A stretch of DNA of 64,000 bases, from positions 316,692 through 380,691 of the forward strand of contig JAQULK010000001.1 of NCBI GenBank assembly GCA_028718635.1. The letters are read 5' to 3'. This stretch comes from Minisyncoccota bacterium. Lineage in GTDB: Bacteria; Patescibacteriota; Minisyncoccia; Phycocordibacterales; UBA9973. This document shows, one piece after another, positions 362 through 54,165 of this stretch (the first letter of the stretch is position 1; each line of letters starts with the position of its first letter). The notes under the pieces were generated by a model, which saw nothing but the letters and a program-made list of their open reading frames with translations, had not been told where the DNA came from and did no database searches. Position numbers and translations under genes: made by a program.

Positions 362-3300
362 ATGAAAAATTTGGAAAAAAATTTTAAAGAAGGATATAAC
401 AGACTGAATAAAGCCCAAAAAGAAGCGGTAGATATTATTGATGGGCCGGTGATGGTGGTGGCGGGGCCGGGTACAGGCAAGACTCAGATATTGGCACTGC
501 GGATCGGTAATATTCTTCTTAAAACTGATATTAAGGCGGATGGCATCTTGTGTTTAACTTTTACAAATTCTGCTGTAAAAGCTATGCGCGAGCGTTTGCG
601 TAAATACATCGGGGTTGAGGCTTCAAAGGTAAAGGTTTCTACTTTTCATGGTTTTGGTATGGATATATTAGATAAATATTTCAACATATTAGGGCTTGAT
701 GAAAAACCTGAATTAATGAATGAACGGGATTCCGTGGCTCTCTGTGATGATATTTTGCAAAACAATGATTGGGAATATATTCGTCCGAGAGCCGATGTGT
801 CGCGATATTTCAAGGATTTAAAAGCGATGATTTCTTTCTTAAAACGCGAACGTATAAGCGGAGAGGATTTGAAAAAAGAAATAAACCGAGAAATTGAGAA
901 TATCAAAAGTGATCCTGCGAGTATTTCTTCTCGAGGAGAAAGCAAAGGCAAAATAAAAAAAGAGGTGGAAAAAAAGATCGAAGGACTTCATCGCACAGAA
1001 GAAGCAGTGAAATTTTATGCTCTTTATGAGGAAATAAAAAAAGAAAAGAATTTATTCGACTATGACGATATTTTGGAATCCTTGGTGCATATCGTGGAAG
1101 AATCCGAGGAAGCAAAAAATTATATCAAAGAAAGTTTTCTTTATGTTTTAATAGACGAACATCAGGATTCTAGCGGGGTGCAGAATGAGTTTTTGGAAAA
1201 AGTTTGGCAAGAAGAAGAAAAACCGAATATCTTTGTCGTAGGTGATGACAGGCAATTAATTTACGGTTTCGGAGGGGCATCCTTGCAATATTTTGAGAAT
1301 TTTAAAAATGCTTTTGGCAAAGCAAAATTAATTACCCTAGAAGAAAATTACCGTTCAACTCAAAAGATTTTAGATTCTTCGCATAATTTATTACAGAGTT
1401 CCATTTCTAAAGGAAAATTAAAGAGCAATCACAAAGAAAATCATGCATTACGTTTGATCGAAGCTTATTACCCTAGAGACGAAATTATTTTTTCAGCGTT
1501 GGAAATAAAGGAAAAGTTAAAGTCCGGATATGACTTTAATGATATAGCTATTTTGGTGCCAAAGAATCGCCAAGTGCGAAGCACTGTGGCTATATTAAAA
1601 GACATGGGTATTCCAGTGGCTGGTATGGAGAGTGTTAATTTTTTTGATGTGCCTGAAACTATTTCTTTTTTTAGGATTTTGAAAATAATCGCTAATCCCA
1701 ACAATGGCGACTCTTTAGCTTTATCTTTTTTTGATAAACTGTCTGGAATTTCTCCGCTTCAGGCGCATGAATTTTTAAAAAATAATAAAATGCGCGAGTT
1801 TTCTTTGTTGAATATAGTTGAGGAGAAAAGTGATTTATTTCATGATTCAAACGAAGTAAATATTTGGATTCAAAAATTGAAATCATGGCTTGATTCTTCA
1901 ACAGAACCTTTATATTTCTTTATTCAAAGAGTAGGTACGGAATTCTTGCTTGACACCGCCAAGGATCACCGAGATCTTATGACGAGGATAGAGGTTTTGC
2001 GAACCGTTCTTCATTTAGTTTTGGCGGAGATAGAAAAAAATCCAAAACTGACTTTGGCAGAATTTCTAAGCTTCTTTGGGCGTATAGAAAATTATGGAGA
2101 AAATATACCACTGGCAATATTTACTCCGAATGAGGGGGTGAAAGTTTTGACCTTGCATGGTTCAAAAGGTTTAGAGTTCGACTATGTCTGGATAGCGCAC
2201 ATGGACGAAAAGTCTTTTTCGGGAAGCAAGCGCGAGGGATTTGCTTTGCCCGCGTCCATAAAAGAAAAAATTGAAAAAAAAGATGAAATAGTGATGAAAC
2301 GCGAATTATACGTGGCCATTACTCGCGCGAAGAGATTTTGCACTATTTCTTATGCTTTAAAATCATACACCGGAGGCGATCAAGAGCTTGCGCATATCAT
2401 TGCCGACCTTGAAGATAATTTTGAAAAACAAAGTGCTGAAGAAACAGAAAAAATAATTTTAAAACGCGACAAGCTTGCATACGTAGAAAATAAAATGATA
2501 GCAGAAGAAAGTCTTGATTTGAAAGGTTTGGTGAAGTTGGTTTCTCGGGATTATGAAGACCGCAAAATATCGGTTTCTCTCCTTAATAATTTCTTTGAAT
2601 GTCCATGGAAATGGTATTTTAGGAATTTATTGCAATTGCCAGAATCAAAAAGCGAGAGCTTAGAATTTGGAAATATCGTTCATGGATCTATAGATGCAAT
2701 TTTAAAGCTTGGCAAGAAACCGAGCGAAGAAGAATTAAAAAATATAATTTCACACCAAGTGCGAAAATCAAATTTTGGAAATGATAGGAAGCAAAAAGAA
2801 TTATTCAATCTCGCTTTAAAAATAATTTCGAGGTGGACGAAATCAAGGCTTCCGGAGATAGGCAAAAATAGGGAAAATGAACAGAGTGTTTCTGTCAACG
2901 ACGACAGATTTCCAAATTTGAATATTTATGGAAAGATAGATTTGATAGAAAATCTACCTGCCCGACACGCTGACGCGAGTCATGCGGGCGGGGAAGGGAA
3001 CAACGTTCGCGTTACAGATTTTAAAACTGGAGGTGTTAGAAAAAAATCCGATATTGAAAAGATAAACGAGGAGGGGAGGATGAGTGATTATATGCGCCAA
3101 CTCGCCATGTATTCGTATTTGCTTAATAAGAATCCAAAATGGAAGAAAAATGTAGTAGAGTCAAAGCTTGAATTCGTGGAAGCATCAAACACGAAGGATA
3201 TTTTTTATAGTACCGTAATAAACAAAGAGCAGATCGACCTCTTGATCAACGATATTAAAGATTATGATAATTTAGTTAAAAATGGCAAATGGGTAGATAG

Positions 3301-3376: not shown

Positions 3377-3394
3377 TGTGCTATAATATCTTTA

Positions 3395-3505
3395 AATCGC
3401 GAAACATAAACTTTTCTTCGGTACGGAATTTTTGAAGCTTAAAAATTCCTGAAGTTCTCGGCTCGCCAGCCTCGAAACCCCTTCGAAAAGTTATGTTTCG
3501 CGATT
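3395..3505 (+). repeat. Family B inverted-repeat element, copy B1 (TIR aatcgcgaaacataaactttt / aaaagttatgtttcgcgatt; internal palindrome ggatttttt-gaagctt-aaaaaatcc)
   Basis: Near-identical core at 49356..49466 and 52798..52911. Confidence 0.8.
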
Positions 3506-3536
3506 CACAATATTATAAGTTTAATTTAATTTTTAT

Positions 3537-3776
3537 ATGTCAGACGAAAAAGGAGAAAATTTAGTACACGGTTTTGATATTCATGCAGGTGATCATCAGC
3601 ATGCATTAAGTTATATAGAAAGTCATATGAGTCCAGAACAATTAAAAGATATGGTTCACAGGGCAGAGAGCGGGCATAGCGCTCATTTTATGGTTACTCA
3701 CAATGGAGTACAGTCAAATTTCAAATTAATACATCAAGACGGAAAGTTAGTAATTCATCATGCGCATCACATTTAA
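3537..3776 (+). CDS. Small histidine-rich protein (13 His in 79 aa), hypothetical, possible metal-binding; stop overlaps pheS start (TAATG)
   Basis: ORF with translational coupling to pheS; composition only. Confidence 0.45.
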   Translation: MSDEKGENLVHGFDIHAGDHQHALSYIESHMSPEQLKDMVHRAESGHSAHFMVTHNGVQSNFKLIHQDGKLVIHHAHHI

Positions 3777-4498
3777 TGAACGAGGAAAATAAAAAAGGTA
3801 AAATACACCCGCTTTCAATGTTAGCTGAGGAGGCCTATCAGGCGTTTTCTGAGATGGGCTTTGAAATTGCAACTGGTCCAGAGCTTGAAAGTGATTGGTA
3901 TAATTTTTATGTTTTAAATTTCCCCAAAGATCATCCAGCGTTGGATATGCAAGATACTTTTTGGATTAAGGATCAAAAAGGAAAAGTTTTACGCACACAT
4001 ACGACGACTACCACAGCACGAGCCATAGAACAAGCAGGTAAAGATGGCAGAATGCCTTGCGCCTTTATTTCTGTTGGAAAAGTTTTTCGCAATGAAGCGA
4101 CTGATGCGACTCACGAAATGCAATTTTACCAGATAGATGGAATCATGGTGGGTAATATTGAAGATGGAATTTCTGTTGCGAATTTAAAAGGAGTACTCAC
4201 GAAATTTTATAAAAAGATGTTGGGCGAAAATACTGAGATAGAATTTCGTCCCAGTTTTTTCCCTTTTACTGAGCCTTCGCTTGAAGTTCACGCAAAGTTC
4301 AACGGGAAGTGGCTCGAAATGATGGGTGCTGGAATGGTTCATCCGAATGTGCTTCGTAACTGCGGACTTGACCCTGCAAAAGTGCAAGGATTCGCTTTTG
4401 GTGGAGGTCTCGATCGGATTGCGATGATTAAATGGAACATATCCGATATACGATTTTTTTATCAGGGAGATTTGCGTCTTAATCAATTTTCAAAATAA
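3776..4498 (+). CDS. pheS: Phenylalanyl-tRNA synthetase alpha subunit, minimal catalytic-core form
   Basis: FPFTEPS, GAGMVHPNVL, GFAFGGGLDRIAMI class II motifs. Confidence 0.92.
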   Translation: MNEENKKGKIHPLSMLAEEAYQAFSEMGFEIATGPELESDWYNFYVLNFPKDHPALDMQDTFWIKDQKGKVLRTHTTTTTARAIEQAGKDGRMPCAFISVGKVFRNEATDATHEMQFYQIDGIMVGNIEDGISVANLKGVLTKFYKKMLGENTEIEFRPSFFPFTEPSLEVHAKFNGKWLEMMGAGMVHPNVLRNCGLDPAKVQGFAFGGGLDRIAMIKWNISDIRFFYQGDLRLNQFSK

Positions 4499-4504
4499 AT
4501 TCAG

Positions 4505-6322
4505 ATGAAAATTTCTTATAATTGGCTAAAAAGTTATATTCCTGAAGTATCTAATACAGATAATCTTGTAGATATTTTTAACTATCATCTTTGCGAAGTT
4601 GAAGGCCTAGAGAAAAAAGGTAATGATACTGTTTTTGATATAAATATTTTACCAAATCGCGCGCATGATCTGCTTTCCCATCGGGGCGTTGCTCGCGAGC
4701 TTGCTTCACTTTTAGATATAAAATTTATTGATCCGATTTTAAAATATAAAATTCCCGAATCAAAACCAACTAAATTAATAAAAGAAATCAAAAGCGATAA
4801 ATGCCGCCGTTATATGGGGCGGGTTATTCGCAATGTGAAAGTGGCGCCTTCGTCAGAATGGGTCGTGAAGTATTTGGAATCGATGGGGCAGAGAAGTATA
4901 AATAATATTGTGGATGCCACAAATATTGTGATGTTTGACTGTGGACAGCCGGCGCACGTTTTTGATTTAGAAAAAGTAAAAGATTTGAGATTGCAGGTGC
5001 GATATGCTGAAAACGGAGAGAAAATTACTTTACTTGGCGGAGGAGAAAAAATCATGAATGATACTATGATGGTTATCTCTGATGATAAAGGTAATTCGCT
5101 TGATATTGCTGGTATAAAAGGCGGAACATATGCCGAACTAAATCAAAACACCACGGAGATAATTTTAGAATGTGCGAATTTTGACCCCACGAGTGTCCGC
5201 AAAACTGCTCAAGCATTGAATATTTTTACTGATGCGCGAAAACGTTTTGAAAATGATTTGTCGCCGGAGCTGGCAGAGTATGGAATAAAAGAATTGTCTG
5301 CGCTTATTTATGAAATGTGTCCAAACGCTATATTTGAGGATATCGTGGATATTTATCCGGAAAAACAAAAAGAAAGAAAGCTTTCTTTTTCCGCTGAAAA
5401 AATTTCAAAGATTTTAGGTTTAGATGTATCTATTGAGGAGATAGAGAATATATTAAAGAGATATAATTTTACATATGTAGAAGATGGTGGACGGTTTGAA
5501 ATCGTAGTGCCACCGATGCGTCTTGACCTAGTAATCGAGGAAGATATGGCTGAGGAGATCGGCAGAATTTTGGGTTACGACAAAGTCAAAGCGCAAATGC
5601 CTGAAATTGGTTTTCAACCAAAGCAAAATGAGACTTATTTCAAAATATCTTTTGCGAGAAATAAATTGCTAGAAGAAGGATATTCTGAAGTGATGACAAG
5701 CAGTTTCTGCGATGAGGGAGAGGTGGAGGTCTTGGCTTCTGCTTCTGATAAAAATTTCTTAAGAACGAATCTGACAGATGGATTGAAAGAGAGCTTAAAA
5801 TTAGATCAAGTGAATGCCCCATTGCTTGGAATAGAAAAAGTTAAAATTTTTGAGATTGGAACAATTTTCAAGAAAAGCGGAGAAGAGATGCACGTTGCTT
5901 ACGGAGATAAAAAAAGAATAAAAGAAATGAAATTGAAAGATTTTCTACCACCTCGCCCTTCGGGCACTCCTCTTCAGAAAGGAGGAGAAGAATTTCCTCC
6001 CCGCCTTGATAAGGAGGGGGCAGGGGGTGGTAAATTTAAAATGTGGTCACTGTTTCCTTTTATTGCGCGTGATATCGCTGTCTGGGTGCCGGAAAATGTC
6101 CAGAACCAGGAAGTAGCAAAAATTATAAAAGAAAACGCGGGGGGAATGGTGGTTCGCGGACCGGAACTTTTTGATGAATTTAAAAAGGGAGATAAAATAT
6201 CTTATGCTTTTAGATTAGTTTTTCAATCTTATGAAAGAACTTTGAATGACCAGGAAGTAAACGATATTATGACCAAAATAACTGATAAAATAAAGGAAAA
6301 TGTTGATTGGCAAGTGAGGTAA
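4505..6322 (+). CDS. pheT: Phenylalanyl-tRNA synthetase beta subunit (short form) carrying an in-frame palindromic element insertion
   Basis: MKISYNWLKSYIPE N-terminus typical of PheT; B3/4 and B5 regions; adjacent to pheS. Confidence 0.88.
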   Translation: MKISYNWLKSYIPEVSNTDNLVDIFNYHLCEVEGLEKKGNDTVFDINILPNRAHDLLSHRGVARELASLLDIKFIDPILKYKIPESKPTKLIKEIKSDKCRRYMGRVIRNVKVAPSSEWVVKYLESMGQRSINNIVDATNIVMFDCGQPAHVFDLEKVKDLRLQVRYAENGEKITLLGGGEKIMNDTMMVISDDKGNSLDIAGIKGGTYAELNQNTTEIILECANFDPTSVRKTAQALNIFTDARKRFENDLSPELAEYGIKELSALIYEMCPNAIFEDIVDIYPEKQKERKLSFSAEKISKILGLDVSIEEIENILKRYNFTYVEDGGRFEIVVPPMRLDLVIEEDMAEEIGRILGYDKVKAQMPEIGFQPKQNETYFKISFARNKLLEEGYSEVMTSSFCDEGEVEVLASASDKNFLRTNLTDGLKESLKLDQVNAPLLGIEKVKIFEIGTIFKKSGEEMHVAYGDKKRIKEMKLKDFLPPRPSGTPLQKGGEEFPPRLDKEGAGGGKFKMWSLFPFIARDIAVWVPENVQNQEVAKIIKENAGGMVVRGPELFDEFKKGDKISYAFRLVFQSYERTLNDQEVNDIMTKITDKIKENVDWQVR

Positions 6323-6979: not shown

Positions 6980-9900
6980 ATGGCGAAAGAAAAAGAAGAC
7001 AAAAAAGGTGCCGAAAAAGGGCACCGTTATGATGCCTCTGACATTTCCGTTTTAGAGGGGCTAGAACCCGTCAGGCGCCGTCCTGGCATGTATATCGGCA
7101 CCACGGGGCCCGAAGGATTACACCACTTAATATGGGAGATTTTTGATAATTCACGCGACGAAGCGATGGGTGGTTTTTGTAATGATATTGAAATTGTCCT
7201 TCTTCCCGGCAATCGCATTCGCGTGGCAGACAATGGCCGAGGCATACCGATCGATATTCATAAAAAAACAAAAGTTTCTGCTTTGGAAACTGTGATGACG
7301 ACGCTTCACGCTGGAGGAAAATTCGGAGGGGAAGGATACAAAGTTTCCGGAGGTCTTCATGGAGTCGGCGCTTCTGTCGTAAATGCTCTTTCTATTTATT
7401 GCAAAGCGGAAGTTTATAGGGATGGCGGAAAGTATTACCAAGAATATTCTCAAGGCAAGAAAAAATCTGCAGTTAAGAAGAGCGGTGCTTCGAAACTTCA
7501 TGGTACCATCATTACCTTTGAACCCGATGAAGAAATTTTTGGCAAAATTGTGTTTGATTGGAATACGGTAATGAGCCACATCCGCCAGCAAGCTTATTTG
7601 GTAAAAGGATTAAAAATTTTAATAATTGATGCAAGAGGGTGGGATAATCAGAAGGGCTTAAACGAAGAAGACGTTTTTTATTTTAGAGAATTAGGACTAG
7701 AGTTACCCTCAGTGACTTTTTATTTCGAAGGCGGATTGGTTTCTCTCGTAAAATATTACAATAAACTTCATAAGCCGATTCAAAACCACATTTTTTATGT
7801 TGAAAAAGAATTAGATAAAGTTGGGGTAGAAATAGCTTTACAATATGTAGATGATATTTCAGATAGAATTTTTCCTTTCGCCAATAATATTTACACCGGA
7901 GAAGGCGGAACCCACGTGACTGGTTTTAAAACAGCTCTCACTAGGACACTCAATACTTACTGCAAGAAAAATGAAATGATGAAAGAATCCGAAGGCGGAT
8001 TTACCGGCGATGATGTCCTGGAAGGATTGACGGTGGTTATTTCTGTAAAGCTTCGAGAGATACAATTTGAAGGGCAGACTAAAGGGAAATTGGGCAGTAT
8101 GGAGGCTCAGGGTGCGGTGGCGACAGTTTTCGGCGAAGCTTTTGCAAGCTTCCTAGAAGAAAATCCAGATGATGCCAAAGCAATAATCAACAAGTCAATT
8201 CTAGCTCTAAAAGCGCGTAAGGCAGCAAAGGCAGCCAAGGACTCAATCCTTCGCAAAGGCGCATTGGAGGGGATGACTTTGCCGGGGAAGTTGGCAGACT
8301 GTCAAAGTAAAAATGCCTCTGAATCGGAATTGTTTTTGGTAGAGGGGGATTCGGCAGGAGGATGTTTTTCAGCAGATACTAAGGTCGCTTTAGTTGACGG
8401 CAGAGATATTTCTTTTAAAGAATTAATTTTAGAACACAATCTAGGTAAAACAAATTATTGTTATACGATTCTGGATGATGGAAGTATCGGTATTCAAAAA
8501 ATTCTTAATCCAAGAAGAACAAAAATAAATACTGAGGTTATAAAAGTCATGCTAGACAATGAAGAAGAAATTGTTTGCACTCCAGACCACCTTTTTATGC
8601 TTCGTGATGGTAATTATAAAGCAGCTCAAGATCTCGAATCAAATGATTCATTAATGCCGTTGCGAAAGCAATTTTCTAAAATAGGCAAAAGAATTACAAT
8701 TGAAGACTATGAAATGGTTTATGACGGGAAAGATCATAGGTGGATATTTACTCATTTGCTTTCTGATAATTATAATTTAGAGCAAGGCGTTTATCCAATT
8801 ACTGAAGGTTCACATAGGCATCATAAGGATTTTAATAAAAGAAACAACAATCCTGAGAACATTATTCGTTTAACTAAGGAAGAACACATGGCATTGCATG
8901 CTCTCCTTTATGAAAAAAATTTAAAGAGGCCGGATGTTTTGGAAAAATTAAAGAACATAAGAAACACTCCTTCATATCGGGGAAAGATACGCCAGAAAAT
9001 GCTCTTAATGAGAGATGAGCTTAGCGCTCGCGCTAAAGCCCAATGGGAAAACGAAGAATATAAAAAATACATGGTTCAGAAATTTTTAGATTTTTATGCT
9101 TCCAACGAAGAATATAGAAAAAAAAGCCAAGAAATTTTAAAGATTGCTCAGAAAAAATATTGGTCAAATGAGGCAAATGTAGAAAAACAATCCCAAAAAG
9201 TAAAGAATTTTTTTAAAGCGCACCCTGAATTAAAAAAAGGACTTTCTGTAATAGCTAAAGAACAATGGGCAAACTTTGATTTATTGAAATGGCGAAGCGA
9301 TAAGACTAAAGGGCAATGGACCGAAGAATTCAGAGAAAAAAGAAAAGTTGCTTATGATAAAACCTATTATGAAAATACCATCAAGGTGTTGAGAAGAGTT
9401 TATGATAACAATAAAGAAATTGACGTAAATCTTTTTGAAGAAATAAGAAAGAGAGAAAATAATAAAAATGTTCTTTCTTTTAAAACCTTTGTAAGCAGGT
9501 TTTTTGACGGAAACGAGACTGAATTATCTGAGGCAGTGGAAAATTATAACCATAAAATAAAAAAAATTATCCAGCTTTCAGAAAAAATAGATGTTTATGA
9601 CTTAGAAGTTCCGGGAACTCATAATTTTGCTCTTGCTTCTGGAGTTTTTGTTCATAATAGCGCTAAACAGGGTAGGGATCGCCGTATCCAAGCGATATTG
9701 CCACTCCGAGGTAAAATTTTAAATGTTGAGCGCGCGCGAATAGACAAGATGCTCGCTTCCAAAGAAGTGAAATCTCTCGTTATCGCTATGGGTACTTCTA
9801 TCGGAGATACTTTTGATTTAGAAAAAATGCGTTATCATAAAATAATTATTGCTACCGATGCCGACGTGGACGGTTCGCACATTCGTACTTTATTGCTTAC

Positions 9901-20829: not shown

Positions 20830-22817
20830 TATATTAAAACATAGTCTATAGTTTTTTTCTCCAAATCAACTGCTTTTACTTTTATTTTAACATGATCGCC
20901 AAGACGATATCTTTTTCCTTGCCTACCGGCAGGCGGGTTCTTTTTTTGCCCGACCAATTCTAGTTTTTTTTCATTAAAAATATAAAAGTCGTCTTTCATA
21001 TCTCGTACTCGTACGAGGCCTTCGCATTTTGTACCTATCTCTTCAACATACATACCCCACTCAGTTATGCCACTTATCACTCCATCAAAACTTTCCCCTT
21101 TGCGTTTAGACATATATTCCACTTGTTTGTATTTTATGGATGCTCGTTCGGCTTCCGTTGCCCGTTTTTCTTGTTCAGAAGCGATTATGACAATTCTTTC
21201 ATATTCTAATAATTTTTCTTTTAATTTATTATTTGTCACTTTTTTCTTTGCAAGATAATCACTCAATAATCTATGGATCATAATGTCTGGATATCTTCTG
21301 ATTGGGGAAGTGAAATGCGTGTAATATTCAAAAGCTAAGCCATAATGGCCGATATTTTTTGTAGAATAAGTTGCTTTGGCCATAGACCTGATCACGGCGC
21401 GATGTACCGTATCACTCATTATTTTGTTTGGGTTTTTGCTTTTTAAATCTTCAAGTAATTTATTTATTTCATGAGTTGGAATTATCCCGTCTTGTAATGA
21501 TACTTTGTGTCCCAAGCTTCGTAAGAAAAATGCGAGATCAGCCATTTTCTCTTTTGATGGTTCATCATGGATGCGATAAATGGAAATATCTTTTGAGAGA
21601 ACTTTTGCCACTTTTTTATTTGCCAGCAACATAAACTCTTCAACTAGTCTATTGGAATCACCTCGTTCTTTTTTTATTACTTTTATCGGGGTACCCTTAT
21701 CATCTAAAATAAATTTAACTTCTTCTTGGTCAAGTGATATAGCGCCTTTAGCAAATCTTTCTTTGGTTAATTTTTTTGCTAAATTATTCAAAATGGAAAG
21801 CTCTTTATGTAGGGGAGCATTTTCATTTTTTATTGCCTCGCCCGTAGGGCTATGGCCGAGGGCTTTTTCTGCTTCTTCATATGTAAATCTTTTTTTAGAA
21901 TGTATTACAGTGCGACCAAACCATTCATCTTTTATTTCTGCGTTTTTATTAATAATAAATACTGCGCTCATGGTGAGTCGATCTTTGTGGGGGACTAAAC
22001 TGCACAAATCATTCGAAAGAGTTTCCGGGAGCATCGGTATTGTTCTGTCTACTAGATAAACCGAGGTTCCTCTTGTGCGGGCTTCTTCATCTAAAGCGCT
22101 GCCAGGTCTCACATAGTGAGACACGTCTGCTATATGGATGCCGACTTCATACACCTCACCCCCTAGCCCCCTCTCCTTATTAAGGAGAGGGGGGAGAATA
22201 CGAAAAGAAATTGCGTCATCAAAATCTTTTGCATCCTCTGGATCAATCGTAAAAGTTAGTGTTTTTGTGAAATCCCGACGTCCTTCATAATCACTTTTTC
22301 TTATTCCTTCGCGCTTTATTTTTTTTGCTTCTTCTTCTACTTTATTTGGAAGTTCTGAATCAAAACCTTTTTCTATCGCAATTGCATTCATCTCGGTAGT
22401 GTTGTCACCAGGTTTTCCCAAGATTTTTATTACTTTTCCAATGGGAGCTTTTTGCGCGTCTTTCCATGAAACTATTTCCACAAAAACTTTTTGCCCGATT
22501 TTTGCGTTATTCAAATTTTCTTTTGGAATCAAAATATCCGTGTACATTTTCGTGTCATCTGTTTTCAAAAAAACTACATTTTTTTCTTGTTCCAAAACTC
22601 CGGTAAAACGCATTTTTGCGCGAGAAATTATTTTTACTACTTCGGCAGTCTGGCGTTTCTGGCTTTTTGGGTGGAGAAGTATCTCCACCATATCTCCGTG
22701 AAGCGCAGTATTCAAATGCTTAAAATCAATTTCCGGATCTTGTTCTTTATTTTTTCCTATTCCTACGGCTACATATCCCGTGCCTTTTGAGGAGATAGAA
22801 ATAATGCCCTCGGCCAT
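20829..22817 (-). CDS. rnr: Ribonuclease R / RNB-family 3'-5' exoribonuclease with a C-terminal S1 domain; contains an in-frame palindromic insertion
   Basis: RNB domain motifs, S1 at the C-terminus; start chosen at MAEGIISI to avoid overlap with the divergent promoter. Confidence 0.85.
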   Translation of the reverse strand: MAEGIISISSKGTGYVAVGIGKNKEQDPEIDFKHLNTALHGDMVEILLHPKSQKRQTAEVVKIISRAKMRFTGVLEQEKNVVFLKTDDTKMYTDILIPKENLNNAKIGQKVFVEIVSWKDAQKAPIGKVIKILGKPGDNTTEMNAIAIEKGFDSELPNKVEEEAKKIKREGIRKSDYEGRRDFTKTLTFTIDPEDAKDFDDAISFRILPPLLNKERGLGGEVYEVGIHIADVSHYVRPGSALDEEARTRGTSVYLVDRTIPMLPETLSNDLCSLVPHKDRLTMSAVFIINKNAEIKDEWFGRTVIHSKKRFTYEEAEKALGHSPTGEAIKNENAPLHKELSILNNLAKKLTKERFAKGAISLDQEEVKFILDDKGTPIKVIKKERGDSNRLVEEFMLLANKKVAKVLSKDISIYRIHDEPSKEKMADLAFFLRSLGHKVSLQDGIIPTHEINKLLEDLKSKNPNKIMSDTVHRAVIRSMAKATYSTKNIGHYGLAFEYYTHFTSPIRRYPDIMIHRLLSDYLAKKKVTNNKLKEKLLEYERIVIIASEQEKRATEAERASIKYKQVEYMSKRKGESFDGVISGITEWGMYVEEIGTKCEGLVRVRDMKDDFYIFNEKKLELVGQKKNPPAGRQGKRYRLGDHVKIKVKAVDLEKKTIDYVLI

Positions 22818-22909
22818 AGACCTACGGGCGAGGTCTTGCCGTATGTGTTGTTTATTTAAATTATTTTTCACCTTATAAATATAGCATAATTTAAACAACC
22901 ATAGAGTGA

Positions 22910-23917: not shown

Positions 23918-23968
23918 TCACCTCACCCGGCCTTTGGCCACCCTCTCCTTAATAAGGAGAGGGGCTGG
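23918..23968 (+). repeat. Family D nested palindromic element, copy D1 (outer cacctcaccc...gggggtgaggt, inner ccctctccttaataaggagagg)
   Basis: Inverted copy at 45137..45198; related in-frame copies inside pheT, smc-like, rnr and dnaG. Confidence 0.85.
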
Positions 23969-24077
23969 GGGTGAGGTCTTATTGCTACAAAATTTTAATT
24001 AGTTATAATTACAGGTATAGCAGTATGTCAGGTCGTAACACTGCAAGTTTAGTAAAAGATTAAATTAAAAAAACATT

Positions 24078-32199: not shown

Positions 32200-34053
32200 A
32201 TGAACTCTCCTGTCCAACAAATTAAGGAGAGGCTATCAATTGAAGAAGTAGTCTCTTCTTATATAAAGCTAGAAAAGGCAGGCGCAAACCTAAAAGCAAA
32301 ATGCCCGTTTCATAACGAAAAAACTCCTTCCTTTTTTATTTCCCCTGATCGAGGCACTTACTATTGTTTTGGATGCGGGGTAAAGGGCGATATTTTTACT
32401 TTCGTAGAAGAATTTGAAGGTCTTGATTTTAGAGGAGCTCTTAAATTGCTTGCCAGCAGAGCGGGAATTGTTTTGGAATCTTACAATCCGAAAGATCAAA
32501 GAAATCAGAGCGAAAAAGAAAGATTATATGAAGTCATGGAAGAAGCGACTGTTTTTTTTGAGAAGAATTTAAAAGAAAATCCGGAAGTTTCATCTTATCT
32601 AAAAAATAGGGGGCTGAATGATGAAAGTATAAAAAATTTCCGTATTGGTTTTGCCTTATTGGAGTGGCGTAAACTTTATGATTATTTAAAATCTAAAAAT
32701 TTTTCTGACAGTGAAATAGAAAAAGCAGGACTTGCAAAGACCCCCTCCGCCGTTGGCACCTCCCCCTTGATAAGGGGGAGGCTGGGTGGGGGTCTGTATG
32801 ACAGATTTCGTGGACGAATAATGTTTCCTATCTCGGATTCTAGCGGACGGGTTATTGCTTTTTCCGGAAGAATCTTTGTTGATGACGGAAAGTCTGCGAA
32901 ATACCTAAATAGCCCTGAAACTTCTATCTTTAATAAATCCGCTGTTCTTTTCGGCATAGATAAAGCTAAAGACCCCATTCGGAAAAATGACTTTTCTATC
33001 TTAGTTGAAGGTCAAATGGATTTGATTTTATCTCACCAAGCAGGATTTAAAAATACCGTAGCTTCCTCGGGGACAGCCATGACTGATTCAGTATTGTCAA
33101 AAGAAAATATTATAAATAACCTAGGACTTATCACCAGATTGTCAAAGAACATGGTCCTTGCTTATGATGCTGATAGAGCGGGGGTGAGTGCGACTAACCG
33201 TTTTGCTAAGATTGCATTATCTTTGGGTATGGATGTAAAGGTGGCAGATATACCCGAGGGAATGGATCCGGCTGATTTGATTTCCCGTGGCTATAGCCAA
33301 ATGGGCGAGGCAAAAGTTGGAGTGGATGCCTGGCGGGAAGCGATAAGGAATTCGAAACATTTTATCGAATTTATGCTGCTGAGGATCTTAAAAGATACTA
33401 ATTCTGACAATAGAAAGGCTGGCAGGGAAATAAAGGAACGCTTGCTTCCTTTTGTGAATGAGATAGAAAGCTCCATAGAAAAATCACATTTCATTACATT
33501 AATCAGTAATAAATCAGGGATTCCTGAAAATGCCCTGATGGAAGATTTGAAAAAAGTAGAAACTGAATTTAAGAATGAAAAAGAAGATATCAAAATCGCC
33601 AAAGAAAATATAGAGAAAAAATTAAGAAAAGACCCGATCGAGCGAAGGCTTTTAGGTATAGCTTTTTGGCAAGAGAGTCTGTCGGACGTTGGACGTCCGA
33701 AATTCGGACGTCCAACGTCCGACAAAACGTCCGACAAACCTAGAATTGATCCAGAATTGATTTTTAAAAAATTAGAAAAAGCAAAAGAAAATGTTAAAGA
33801 AAAATATAAAGACAGGAGAGAGGATTTGATTTATGAGGTAGAAGAATTTTACTCAAATAATGAAAATCTGGAAAAAGACGTAGAGGAAATGCTGCTCAAT
33901 ATAGAGGAAGAATATTTAAATGAAGAATTTAGCATTAAGATGATAGAATACCAGAATTGCAAAGATAAAATAGAAAAGGAAGAAATTTTTAAAAAAATAA
34001 GTGAAATAACAAAAAGAAAAGAAGATATTAAAAATAGTCGTATAAGAAAATAA
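32200..34053 (+). CDS. dnaG: DNA primase carrying two in-frame palindromic insertions
   Basis: Zn-ribbon CPFHNEKTPSFFISPDRGTYYCFGCG; TOPRIM EGQMDLI. Confidence 0.9.
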   Translation: MNSPVQQIKERLSIEEVVSSYIKLEKAGANLKAKCPFHNEKTPSFFISPDRGTYYCFGCGVKGDIFTFVEEFEGLDFRGALKLLASRAGIVLESYNPKDQRNQSEKERLYEVMEEATVFFEKNLKENPEVSSYLKNRGLNDESIKNFRIGFALLEWRKLYDYLKSKNFSDSEIEKAGLAKTPSAVGTSPLIRGRLGGGLYDRFRGRIMFPISDSSGRVIAFSGRIFVDDGKSAKYLNSPETSIFNKSAVLFGIDKAKDPIRKNDFSILVEGQMDLILSHQAGFKNTVASSGTAMTDSVLSKENIINNLGLITRLSKNMVLAYDADRAGVSATNRFAKIALSLGMDVKVADIPEGMDPADLISRGYSQMGEAKVGVDAWREAIRNSKHFIEFMLLRILKDTNSDNRKAGREIKERLLPFVNEIESSIEKSHFITLISNKSGIPENALMEDLKKVETEFKNEKEDIKIAKENIEKKLRKDPIERRLLGIAFWQESLSDVGRPKFGRPTSDKTSDKPRIDPELIFKKLEKAKENVKEKYKDRREDLIYEVEEFYSNNENLEKDVEEMLLNIEEEYLNEEFSIKMIEYQNCKDKIEKEEIFKKISEITKRKEDIKNSRIRK

Positions 34054-52790: not shown

Positions 52791-52797
52791 TTAACTT

Positions 52798-52911
52798 TGA
52801 ATTACAAAACATAAACTTTTCTTCGGTACGGATTTTTTGAAGCTTAAAAAATCCTGAAGTTCTCGGCTCGTCAGCCTCGAAACCCCTTCGAAAAGTTATG
52901 TTTCATAATTC
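52798..52911 (+). repeat. Family B element, copy B3; ends immediately before the ATG of the decarboxylase gene at 52912
   Basis: Core shared with B1 and B2. Confidence 0.8.
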
Positions 52912-54165
52912 ATGATAAATATCATGTCACATTGCAATCCGGAAGAAAGACAAGTTGAGCCTTGGGTTAACGAAGAAGGTTTTCAAAAATTGAATTTAAA
53001 AAATGTTGAAACTCCTTGCTATATTGTAAGCGAGGGGAATCTTGAGCGTAATTTAAAAATTCTCGAAAAAATACAGAAAGATTTAGGAGTAAAAATTTTA
53101 ATTGCCCTTAAATGCTTTTCGATGTATTCTGTCTTTCCGCTCATAAGAAAATATTTAGCGGGGACAGAAGTGAGTTCAGTAAATGAAGCGCGTCTAGGAT
53201 ATGAAGAATTCGGCAAGGAAAATCATATTTTTTCTCCATCCTACACCGATAAAAATATCAAAGAATATATAAAATACGGCAACCATATATCTTTCAACTC
53301 TTTTTCTCAATGGAACAAGTTCAAAAAAACCATCAAAAATTCCCTCGGTCGTAGCCCTACGGGTGAGACCAAGAAAAAAGTGTCTTGCGGTATCCGAGTA
53401 AATCCAGAACACAGCGAAGGAACCATGCCTATGTATGACCCTTGTGTGCCCCGTTCGCATCTAGGCGTGACTTTAGCGAATTTTGAAACAAATAACATGG
53501 AAGGGATAGAAGGATTGCATTTTCACACTCTTTGTGAAAATGGCGCCGATAAGTTTGCGCGCACTCTGAAAGCTTTTGAAGAAAAGTTTGGAAAATTTTT
53601 AGGAAAGATGAAATGGGTAAATTTCGGAGGCGGGCATCTTCTTACCAATTCCGATTATGACCTTGATTTGCTTTATAAGGTCGTTTCTGATTTTAAAAAA
53701 AGATACCCGCACTTGACGGTCTATTTCGAGCCGGGAGAAGCAGTAGTGATGAATACCGGAGGTCTAGTGGCTTCTGTGATAGACATTTTTAATAACGGAG
53801 TAGATATTGCCGTTCTTGATGTGTCAGCGGCGTGTCATATGCCGGATGTTTTAGAAGTGCCGTATTTGCCGAAAATTGTGGGTGCGAAACCTATAACTGG
53901 TAATTGTAAAATTGAGGGAGAAAAAAATGTTTATAAGCTAGTGGCGCCGACGTGTTTGACTGGAGACGTTATCGGTTTTTATTCTTTTCCTAATAAATTA
54001 AAAATCGGAGACAAGATAATTTTTCTCAATATGGCGATTTATACGATGGTAAAGAATAATACCTTTAATGGAGTCAATTTGCCGAATATCACCAAGATGG
54101 ACAAGAAGGGGAAAATAAAGGTCTTGAAAAGATTTGGGTATGAGGATTTTAAAAGAAGGCTATAG
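52912..54165 (+). CDS. nspC: Carboxy(nor)spermidine decarboxylase (NspC family)
   Basis: TPCYIVSEGNLERNLKIL ... ILIALKCFS ... GGGHLLT pattern of NspC. Confidence 0.78.
   Translation: MINIMSHCNPEERQVEPWVNEEGFQKLNLKNVETPCYIVSEGNLERNLKILEKIQKDLGVKILIALKCFSMYSVFPLIRKYLAGTEVSSVNEARLGYEEFGKENHIFSPSYTDKNIKEYIKYGNHISFNSFSQWNKFKKTIKNSLGRSPTGETKKKVSCGIRVNPEHSEGTMPMYDPCVPRSHLGVTLANFETNNMEGIEGLHFHTLCENGADKFARTLKAFEEKFGKFLGKMKWVNFGGGHLLTNSDYDLDLLYKVVSDFKKRYPHLTVYFEPGEAVVMNTGGLVASVIDIFNNGVDIAVLDVSAACHMPDVLEVPYLPKIVGAKPITGNCKIEGEKNVYKLVAPTCLTGDVIGFYSFPNKLKIGDKIIFLNMAIYTMVKNNTFNGVNLPNITKMDKKGKIKVLKRFGYEDFKRRL

Follow-up and report, generated by a model that had tools for sequence, protein, structure and literature searches.

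Palindromic selfish DNA that lies in frame within protein-coding genes is textbook knowledge for Rickettsia, and intragenic repetitive extragenic palindromic (REP) sequences occur in some Proteobacteria. Inserts of the Rickettsia palindromic element (RPE) are tolerated with a neutral or slightly harmful effect, gmk being the tested case (PMC2229807), and REPs are GC-rich imperfect palindromes of 20-40 nucleotides (nt) with a short end tag, some of which are intragenic, often in replication or repair genes (PMC3733652). Here we describe a repeat of this kind, family D, in a 64,000-nt stretch of DNA from a Minisyncoccota bacterium of the candidate phyla radiation (CPR) (contig JAQULK010000001.1, positions 316,692 to 380,691; the whole stretch is referred to below as the window), and we focus on the copy at positions 5946-6032 of its forward strand, within pheT. 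This segment belongs to family D, has the predicted fold of the family, and occupies a linker of PheT in frame. We consider it probable that it is a copy of a dispersed, modular, GC-rich palindromic selfish repeat of the REP/RPE type that is tolerated at a permissive linker loop. A literature search found no report of in-frame palindromic selfish repeats in CPR/Patescibacteria genomes; family D is a small palindromic selfish repeat able to live in coding sequence, in a phylum for which we found no such report.

Two tagged hairpin modules make up the element, module A consisting of a head (ACCACCTC) and two hairpins and module B of one hairpin and a tail (GGGGGTGGT). Head and tail are complementary, and the modules are found singly, as A-B (the pheT copy), or as B-A, an order that encodes ...PLLxEEGxGGG-NSKK-PPRPSGTPPQKGGE... 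and in which the complementary head and tail make a central hairpin. Like the RPE, family D is a dispersed palindromic repeat with terminal inverted repeats and a stable stem-loop, it is found both between genes and in frame in conserved housekeeping genes, and no transposase is known for it. As with the RPE, in-frame copies lie at tolerated sites of conserved genes (pheT, smc, rnr, and dnaG), the pheT copy encoding a predicted disordered linker. The two are set apart by length and host, the RPE being 105-146 bp long and specific to Rickettsia, whereas family D is 60-90 nt long and has a CPR host. Family D further differs from the RPE in that it consists of smaller tagged hairpin modules, which also occur alone or in reverse order, in that it is GC-rich in an AT-rich genome, and in that unrelated families repeatedly colonize the same loops across species.

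The A-B and B-A arrangements of family D resemble REP dimers, and, as in REPs, BIMEs, and REPINs, the units are GC-rich imperfect palindromes of 20-40 nt that have a short conserved tag at one end and pair head-to-head or tail-to-tail, the stems contain G-T pairs, and some copies are intragenic. However, the conserved ends of family D (ACCACC/GGTGGT) are base paired, whereas REPs carry an unpaired terminal GTAG or CGTC tag; GGTGGTAG was present in only 2 of 11 long-form copies. REPs are also mainly extragenic, whereas 34 of the 41 copies of module B that were found in related pheT loci and the window lie inside long open reading frames (ORFs). Bacterial MITEs (miniature inverted-repeat transposable elements; Correia/NEMIS, ERIC, and RUP) resemble family D in being small and nonautonomous, with inverted ends, stable RNA folds, and some gene-fused open frames, but they are ~100-200 bp long and usually have a TA target-site duplication and a parent insertion sequence; family D has inverted ends, and neither of those two features was seen. 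Short GC-rich palindromes are known, too, from the AT-rich compact genomes of mitochondria (yeast GC clusters, sponge repetitive hairpin-forming elements, and double-hairpin elements), where, as in family D, they are occasionally in frame in coding sequence. Those elements are organellar and mostly intergenic, and the likeness is an analogy only, with no sequence relationship.

The host gene, pheT (4505-6322, forward strand), adjoins pheS (3776-4498) and encodes a protein of 605 amino acids (aa), which Pfam identifies as PheT by its B3_4, B5, partial CLM (B6/7), and FDX-ACB (B8) domains. The protein comprises B1, B3_4 (residues 99-272), B5 (294-358), a reduced CLM (363-460), and FDX-ACB (515-605) and has no B2. 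Read in the sense direction and in the pheT frame, positions 5946-6032 encode residues 481-510 (LPPRPSGTPLQKGGEEFPPRLDKEGAGGGK), which are followed by F (511). When the protein was aligned by HMMER to solved PheT structures, residues 41-410 matched residues 154-524 of 4p71 and residues 510-600 matched its residues 693-786, with B8 beginning at residue 510; KFKMWSLFPFIARD, directly after the insert, matches 4p71 from residue 693 on. Residues 411-509 were left unaligned to 4p71, 6p8t, and the other solved PheT structures. In an AlphaFold model of moderate overall quality (mean predicted local distance difference test score, or pLDDT, of 68), residues 483-517 had a pLDDT below 50 and no secondary structure; ahead of the insert the block means were 74-81, and most of FDX-ACB, which follows it, had means of 81-92. 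The region of the insert is thus predicted to be disordered, and Pfam and the 4p71 alignment together place it between the reduced B6/7 (CLM) remnant and B8.

A preliminary description of this DNA, made from the sequence alone, had raised a position of the insert between B5 and B6/7 as a point to check and had tied the short PheT to the repeats. The protein is short because B2 is absent and B6/7 is cut down, and the 120 closest PheT homologues were all 573-661 aa long irrespective of their linker. Measured against a basal linker of ~20 aa, moreover, the insert brings a net gain of only ~10 residues; it replaces the linker and is not added to it. What did hold was the claim of a repeat-derived, Pro/Gly-rich, in-frame insertion in PheT: the unaligned residues 411-509 show no match of the segment to conserved PheT residues of other phyla, and the site is hypervariable among homologues. 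The earlier reading is therefore partly supported, with regard to the origin of the segment from a repeat, and falls with regard to the domain boundary and the link to protein length. The exact PheT protein of the window is also present in an NCBI metagenome-assembled genome (MAG) of "Candidatus Pacebacteria" and in an independent Logan assembly, which marks the organism as a Paceibacteria/Nomurabacteria-like member of the CPR. Although short GC-rich repeats can confuse metagenome assemblers, an assembly or binning artifact, such as a chimeric join at a repeat, is vanishingly improbable, given the intact reading frame, the identical protein in two independent assemblies, and the fact that dozens of assemblies, made in different projects, share the insertion site.

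The pheT copy is a long-form element in the A-B arrangement, with all of its parts on the forward strand. Its outer stem pairs the head (TACCACCTC; 5946-5954) with the tail (GGGGTGGTA; 6024-6032) and contains a U-G wobble that was found in 36 of 36 copies. Enclosed by this stem are hairpin 1 (5955-5965; GCCC-TTC-GGGC), the counterpart of the short-form GGCC-TTT-GGCC; hairpin 2 (5967-5987; CTCCTCTT-CAGAA-AGGAGGAG), the extra hairpin that defines the long form; and hairpin 3 (5998-6020; TCCCC-G-CCTT-GAT-AAGG-A-GGGGG), the core hairpin of family D. The consensus of the core, CCYCYCCTT-NNN-AAGGRGRGG with a G-rich tail behind it that pairs with the C-rich head, is recognizable in the pheT copy, which also unites all of the long-form components in one unit, namely, the head ACCACCTC, hairpins 1, 2 (CTCCTCCT/AGGAGGAG), and 3, and the tail GGGGGTGGT. 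The element (~87 bases) is predicted to fold with a dG of -43 kcal/mol (z, -3.2), and none of 200 shuffled sequences folded as well. Its GC content is 0.53-0.58, compared with 0.37 for the window; a scan of the window for GC islands was too noisy for census use. Rfam returned no relevant family, either at gathering thresholds over the whole window or by E value over positions 5880-6100, and its only matches were chance ones to microRNA hairpins, scoring 17-20 bits against thresholds of 87-100.

Five other copies of family D lie in the window, and their common fold is an outer stem around a small hairpin and the core hairpin. Short forms are in frame in smc (16963-17019, forward strand) and in dnaG (32738-32795, forward strand), both encoding ...TSPLIRGRLGGG..., and a copy of module B only is in frame in the RNase R gene, rnr (22153-22195, reverse strand), where it encodes ILPPLLNKERGLGGEV. 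The remaining two are intergenic short forms, one of which starts 2 nt past the rpsP stop codon (23919-23977, forward strand), in a terminator-like position, while the other occupies the mreC-tgt spacer (45137-45196, reverse strand), which it fills completely, so that the GGTGAGGTG sequence, similar to a ribosome-binding site, comes to lie 4 nt ahead of the tgt start codon (ATG at 45201). A profile made from these five copies alone matched positions 5998-6026 on the forward strand (E = 1.5e-4 in the 64-kb window) and otherwise only the seed copies, their reverse-strand echoes, and a marginal echo (E = 1.9), likewise on the reverse strand, inside the pheT element. With a broader set of seeds that excluded the pheT copy, the pheT element was found at an E value of 7.5e-7. 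In the reciprocal direction, a covariance model of the long form, based on 11 sequences (10 of them from other genomes), recovered the window's other full copies of family D, four in number, with E values of 1e-7 to 1.5e-4. The similarity to a full D element that the preliminary description had seen in strings at 5947-5965 (accacctcgcccttcgggc) and 5996-6030 (cctccccgccttgataaggagggggcagggggtgg) therefore exceeds chance. Its wording of a longer and diverged copy was likewise accurate: the pheT copy has the one extra hairpin (5967-5987), and an nhmmer search with one short-form copy was too weak to find it convincingly (E = 3.5 in 1.46 Mb), such that profiles and covariance models were required.

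This poor result with a single query, together with the possibility of low complexity or chance likeness, would fit an ordinary lineage-specific linker that arose by point mutation under protein selection. Such an origin is extremely unlikely, as both the leave-one-out profile and the covariance model gave significant matches, near-identical DNA is found in unrelated genes, frames, and genomes, and the stems are conserved at all three codon positions. The pheT copy shares ~83% nucleotide identity with 10 copies of other genomes. Among 10 pheT copies, the element had a mean pairwise nucleotide identity of 83% when all columns were counted, the stem columns reaching 95% and the unpaired ones 59%, and the flanking coding DNA had one of 67-69%, falling to 45% at third codon positions. 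The same four helices were obtained when either 11 or 36 copies were folded to a consensus, with near-invariant stems and variable loops; compensatory changes were few, U-G wobble pairs were never replaced, and in two copies (L085 and L142) one hairpin had been exchanged for an unrelated hairpin. Because the same stems are kept in copies of other genes and of intergenic DNA, this conservation belongs to the family and not to the function of PheT. We concluded from these alignments that conservation is at the DNA level rather than at the protein level.

Stems that are 95% conserved while the loops drift, and U-G wobbles that are never replaced, which favor folding of the sense strand, would also be seen if the element were kept because it is useful, either as a stable mRNA structure at the domain boundary or as a longer flexible tether benefiting B8. 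In variants of this explanation, the structure would slow ribosomes for cotranslational folding or would stabilize the transcript, the repeat being the raw material and its function explaining its persistence. We consider a useful element unlikely. Copies of other genes and of intergenic DNA, whichever way they lie relative to neighboring genes, have equally well conserved stems; the conservation is thus a feature of the family, not of the pheT site. The state of the linker in relatives, described below, bears on the question from both sides.

In the 120 homologues, the flanks of the linker (...EIKEM.L.EF and FKMWSLFPFIARD) were near-invariant and the stretch between them was hypervariable. 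We surveyed the linker DNA of 80 species representatives and obtained 76 scorable linkers, 42 of which were strongly folding (mean length, 96 nt; GC content, 0.50; mean shuffle z, -5.6), 18 intermediate, and 16 unstructured. The basal state is an AT-rich, unstructured linker of ~20 residues (for example, CKDMPKDFSLEPRSYNLEAK), and the filled state consists of GC-rich, strongly folding inserts, 70-170 nt long, from several sequence families without relation to one another. The strongly folding, GC-rich linker DNA, of several unrelated families, that 42 of 76 species contain might reflect convergence on a hairpin at this place, as expected of a useful element, but 16 of the 76 species, including close relatives of D carriers, make do with the unstructured AT-rich basal linker, and a loop of PheS has been colonized likewise, at lower occupancy.

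The full long form of family D is found at the same pheT site in L005, L031, L036, and L082-L087. When identity was computed outside the linker, only 2 of the 54 nearest-neighbor slots of nine D-carrying PheT proteins were also occupied by D carriers, and several of the nearest neighbors, with 78-83% identity, retain the conserved AT-rich basal linker. (Nearest-neighbor identities were used instead of a neighbor-joining tree of PheT, which was star-like and poorly resolved.) Since a conserved basal linker could not have been restored in near relatives after its replacement, these comparisons show that the same element was acquired independently at the same pheT site in several lineages, D being present in at least nine PheT lineages whose nearest relatives have other linkers. 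The junctions of the element vary among copies, L031 keeping CKDS and L036 keeping SLK. We also considered spread as a pheT cassette by homologous recombination and found no support for it, similarity of the flanks next to the element being no greater among D carriers (0.63-0.72) than among 10 control loci with basal linkers (0.58-0.69). Elsewhere in PheT of the relatives, insertion hot spots were seen in an N-terminal loop (~aa 35-45; 10106-10151 in L010, 10090-10135 in L013, 10092-10141 in L016, and 10090-10141 in L045), near aa 458 (SSSAQGFGGT, in P0003, P0018, and P0022), and in a loop inside B8 (FDX-ACB; L085 and L086).

When metagenomes were scanned with the 5' module, 101 stretches were found, 80 of which together held 84 occurrences of that module. 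Forty-four occurrences were in the sense direction in long ORFs, 8 were antisense, and the other 32 were not in a long ORF and frequently lay only a few bases from where a gene ends. The corresponding numbers for module B, in 1.46 Mb of related pheT loci and the window, were 31 sense, 3 antisense, and 7 outside long ORFs. Among the hosts of the sense copies, as identified by conserved flanking motifs, were PheS, PheT, FtsK (at two sites), RsmA/KsgA, AtpD, LepA, IF2, UvrA, and MnmA. The long form was found inside PheS in L019, L085, L086, L089, L102, and L147. The PheS loop IK-DQKGK-VLRTHTT, a beta-turn before VLRTHTT, is empty in the window (3947-4006); among the related sequences recovered, a minority have it filled, with the same families as the pheT linker (carriers are L019, L085, L086, L089, L147, L016, L076, and L005).

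Genic copies use all three sense frames, with a predominance of the one that reads PPRPSGTPP. No other frame lacks stop codons as often as the PPRPSG frame does (30 of 36 copies), and stop codons alone are insufficient to account for the frame used. Intergenic copies overall lie in either direction relative to neighboring genes, most of the distinct ones with a long ORF just upstream being oriented against that ORF. The sense orientation and the bias toward a single frame are restricted to genic copies. Selection acting on the hydrophilic, Pro-, Gly-, Ser-, and Thr-rich peptide that the copies encode is the best explanation for these biases, and a mechanism of strand-specific insertion is a less likely one. 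The same facts bear on whether the segment might be an intervening sequence that is removed, like an intron or an intein, after transcription or translation, leaving a mature PheT without it. CPR genomes are known for intervening sequences in rRNA, and the segment is predicted to be a highly structured RNA, but an open host frame in genic copies and the dominance of one hydrophilic-peptide frame would be needless if the segment were spliced out. There was no Rfam match, introns included, and an intein is excluded by a length of 30 residues and the lack of Cys/Ser/Thr...Asn junctions. We consider removal of the segment very unlikely.

We propose that the repeat came into the interdomain linker of pheT as DNA, or took the place of that linker, and that the copy was kept because it is in frame, stop-free, and at a structurally permissive spot. 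Presumably, it is translated as a disordered, Pro/Gly-rich tether of ~30 residues that would join the catalytic-like core to the B8 anticodon-binding domain. The family probably is, or was, mobile by means of a factor acting in trans, probably on the single-stranded fold; selection on the encoded peptide would filter the insertions that survive, and the pheT copy may well be neutral or nearly neutral for the enzyme. Three observations weigh against a selfish repeat. RAYTs (transposases of the IS200/IS605 Y1 type) are linked to REPs, whereas here no mobilizing enzyme was detected, a Pfam-validated IS200 Y1 TnpA query having 0 matches in 2.15 Mb of element-bearing DNA in a single-sequence search, which is insensitive. 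No target-site duplication was evident at the junctions of the element, and the 95% identity of stems across species with diverged loops could instead mean functional selection on the stems. On the first point, no mobilizing activity is known for the RPE (PMC2229807) or for CGTC-tagged REPs (PMC3733652) either. A fixed target motif at the junctions was rejected: many ends continue with AATT or GATT, a pattern from which the PheS junctions depart. Viral contigs, scanned for the pattern of the 3' module, contained 0 matches and hence gave no sign of a phage vector.

Other repeats and inserts are present in the window. The RNase R gene, besides its D copy, contains two oppositely oriented copies (21832-21868 and 22801-22835) of a third palindromic family (CCTCGCCCGTAGGGCTATGGCCGAGGG), amounting to three repeat-derived segments, and another in-frame copy of that family lies at 53336-53378 in the ORF at 52912-54165. 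In tgt, two direct copies of a different GC-rich hairpin (46046-46090 and 46382-46426; dG, ~-24.5) are in frame and encode the same 11-residue peptide. A 126-nt repeat occurs three times (3387-3512, 49348-49473, and 52792-52917) at the edges of intergenic spacers, with 71-90% identity; it has a long closed multibranch fold (dG, -34 to -42), whose closing stem shows compensatory changes, and no Rfam match, and it might represent a small RNA or a further mobile element. Members of a further family, ATCCCGTTAGAAGC.G.TCGCGGTC, form inverted pairs flanking genes, such as a lysA-like gene and asd, with copies at 239-279, 338-372, 14423-14457, 47929-47974, 48045-48076, 49203-49240, and 49296-49336. 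Single GC-rich palindromic islands are in frame in a uvrD/addA-like gene (2966-3010; HADASHAGGEGNNVR) and at the C terminus of gyrB (10076-10108; TLEEVGVPTPD) and may be decayed elements of other families. The gyrB gene itself (6980-10357) encodes a GyrB protein of 1,125 aa with an intein-like insert of ~430 residues (~aa 462-893), between GDSAGG|C and VHN|S, that is lacking in the 681- to 693-aa proteins encoded by gyrB of two relatives.

The repeated filling of the same sites suggests a further possibility, which we regard as doubtful though worth stating, that Paceibacteria (CPR) harbor a whole community of unrelated hairpin-element families whose entry into one small set of surface loops in essential genes is recurrent, independent, and due to a directed process. 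Integration might be guided by structure or by single-stranded DNA, or one element might replace another. If this were true, the distribution of copies would not reflect random insertion followed by selection, the 95% identity of the stems would represent ongoing spread between lineages, and family D would be the first REP/RPE-like system that prefers coding loops in ultrasmall genomes.

For a selfish repeat tolerated in coding sequence, the consequences extend beyond pheT. Such elements would explain some of the odd insertions, specific to individual lineages, that housekeeping proteins of CPR bacteria contain, and GC-rich repeats that recur in many genes can confound alignments, phylogenies, and the assembly of MAGs. 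Their insertion sites mark tolerant loops of essential enzymes, among them PheRS, FtsK, AtpD, and IF2. The presence of several families at the same sites, combined with extreme conservation of the stems, offers a handle on how repeats spread in tiny genomes without obvious transposases.

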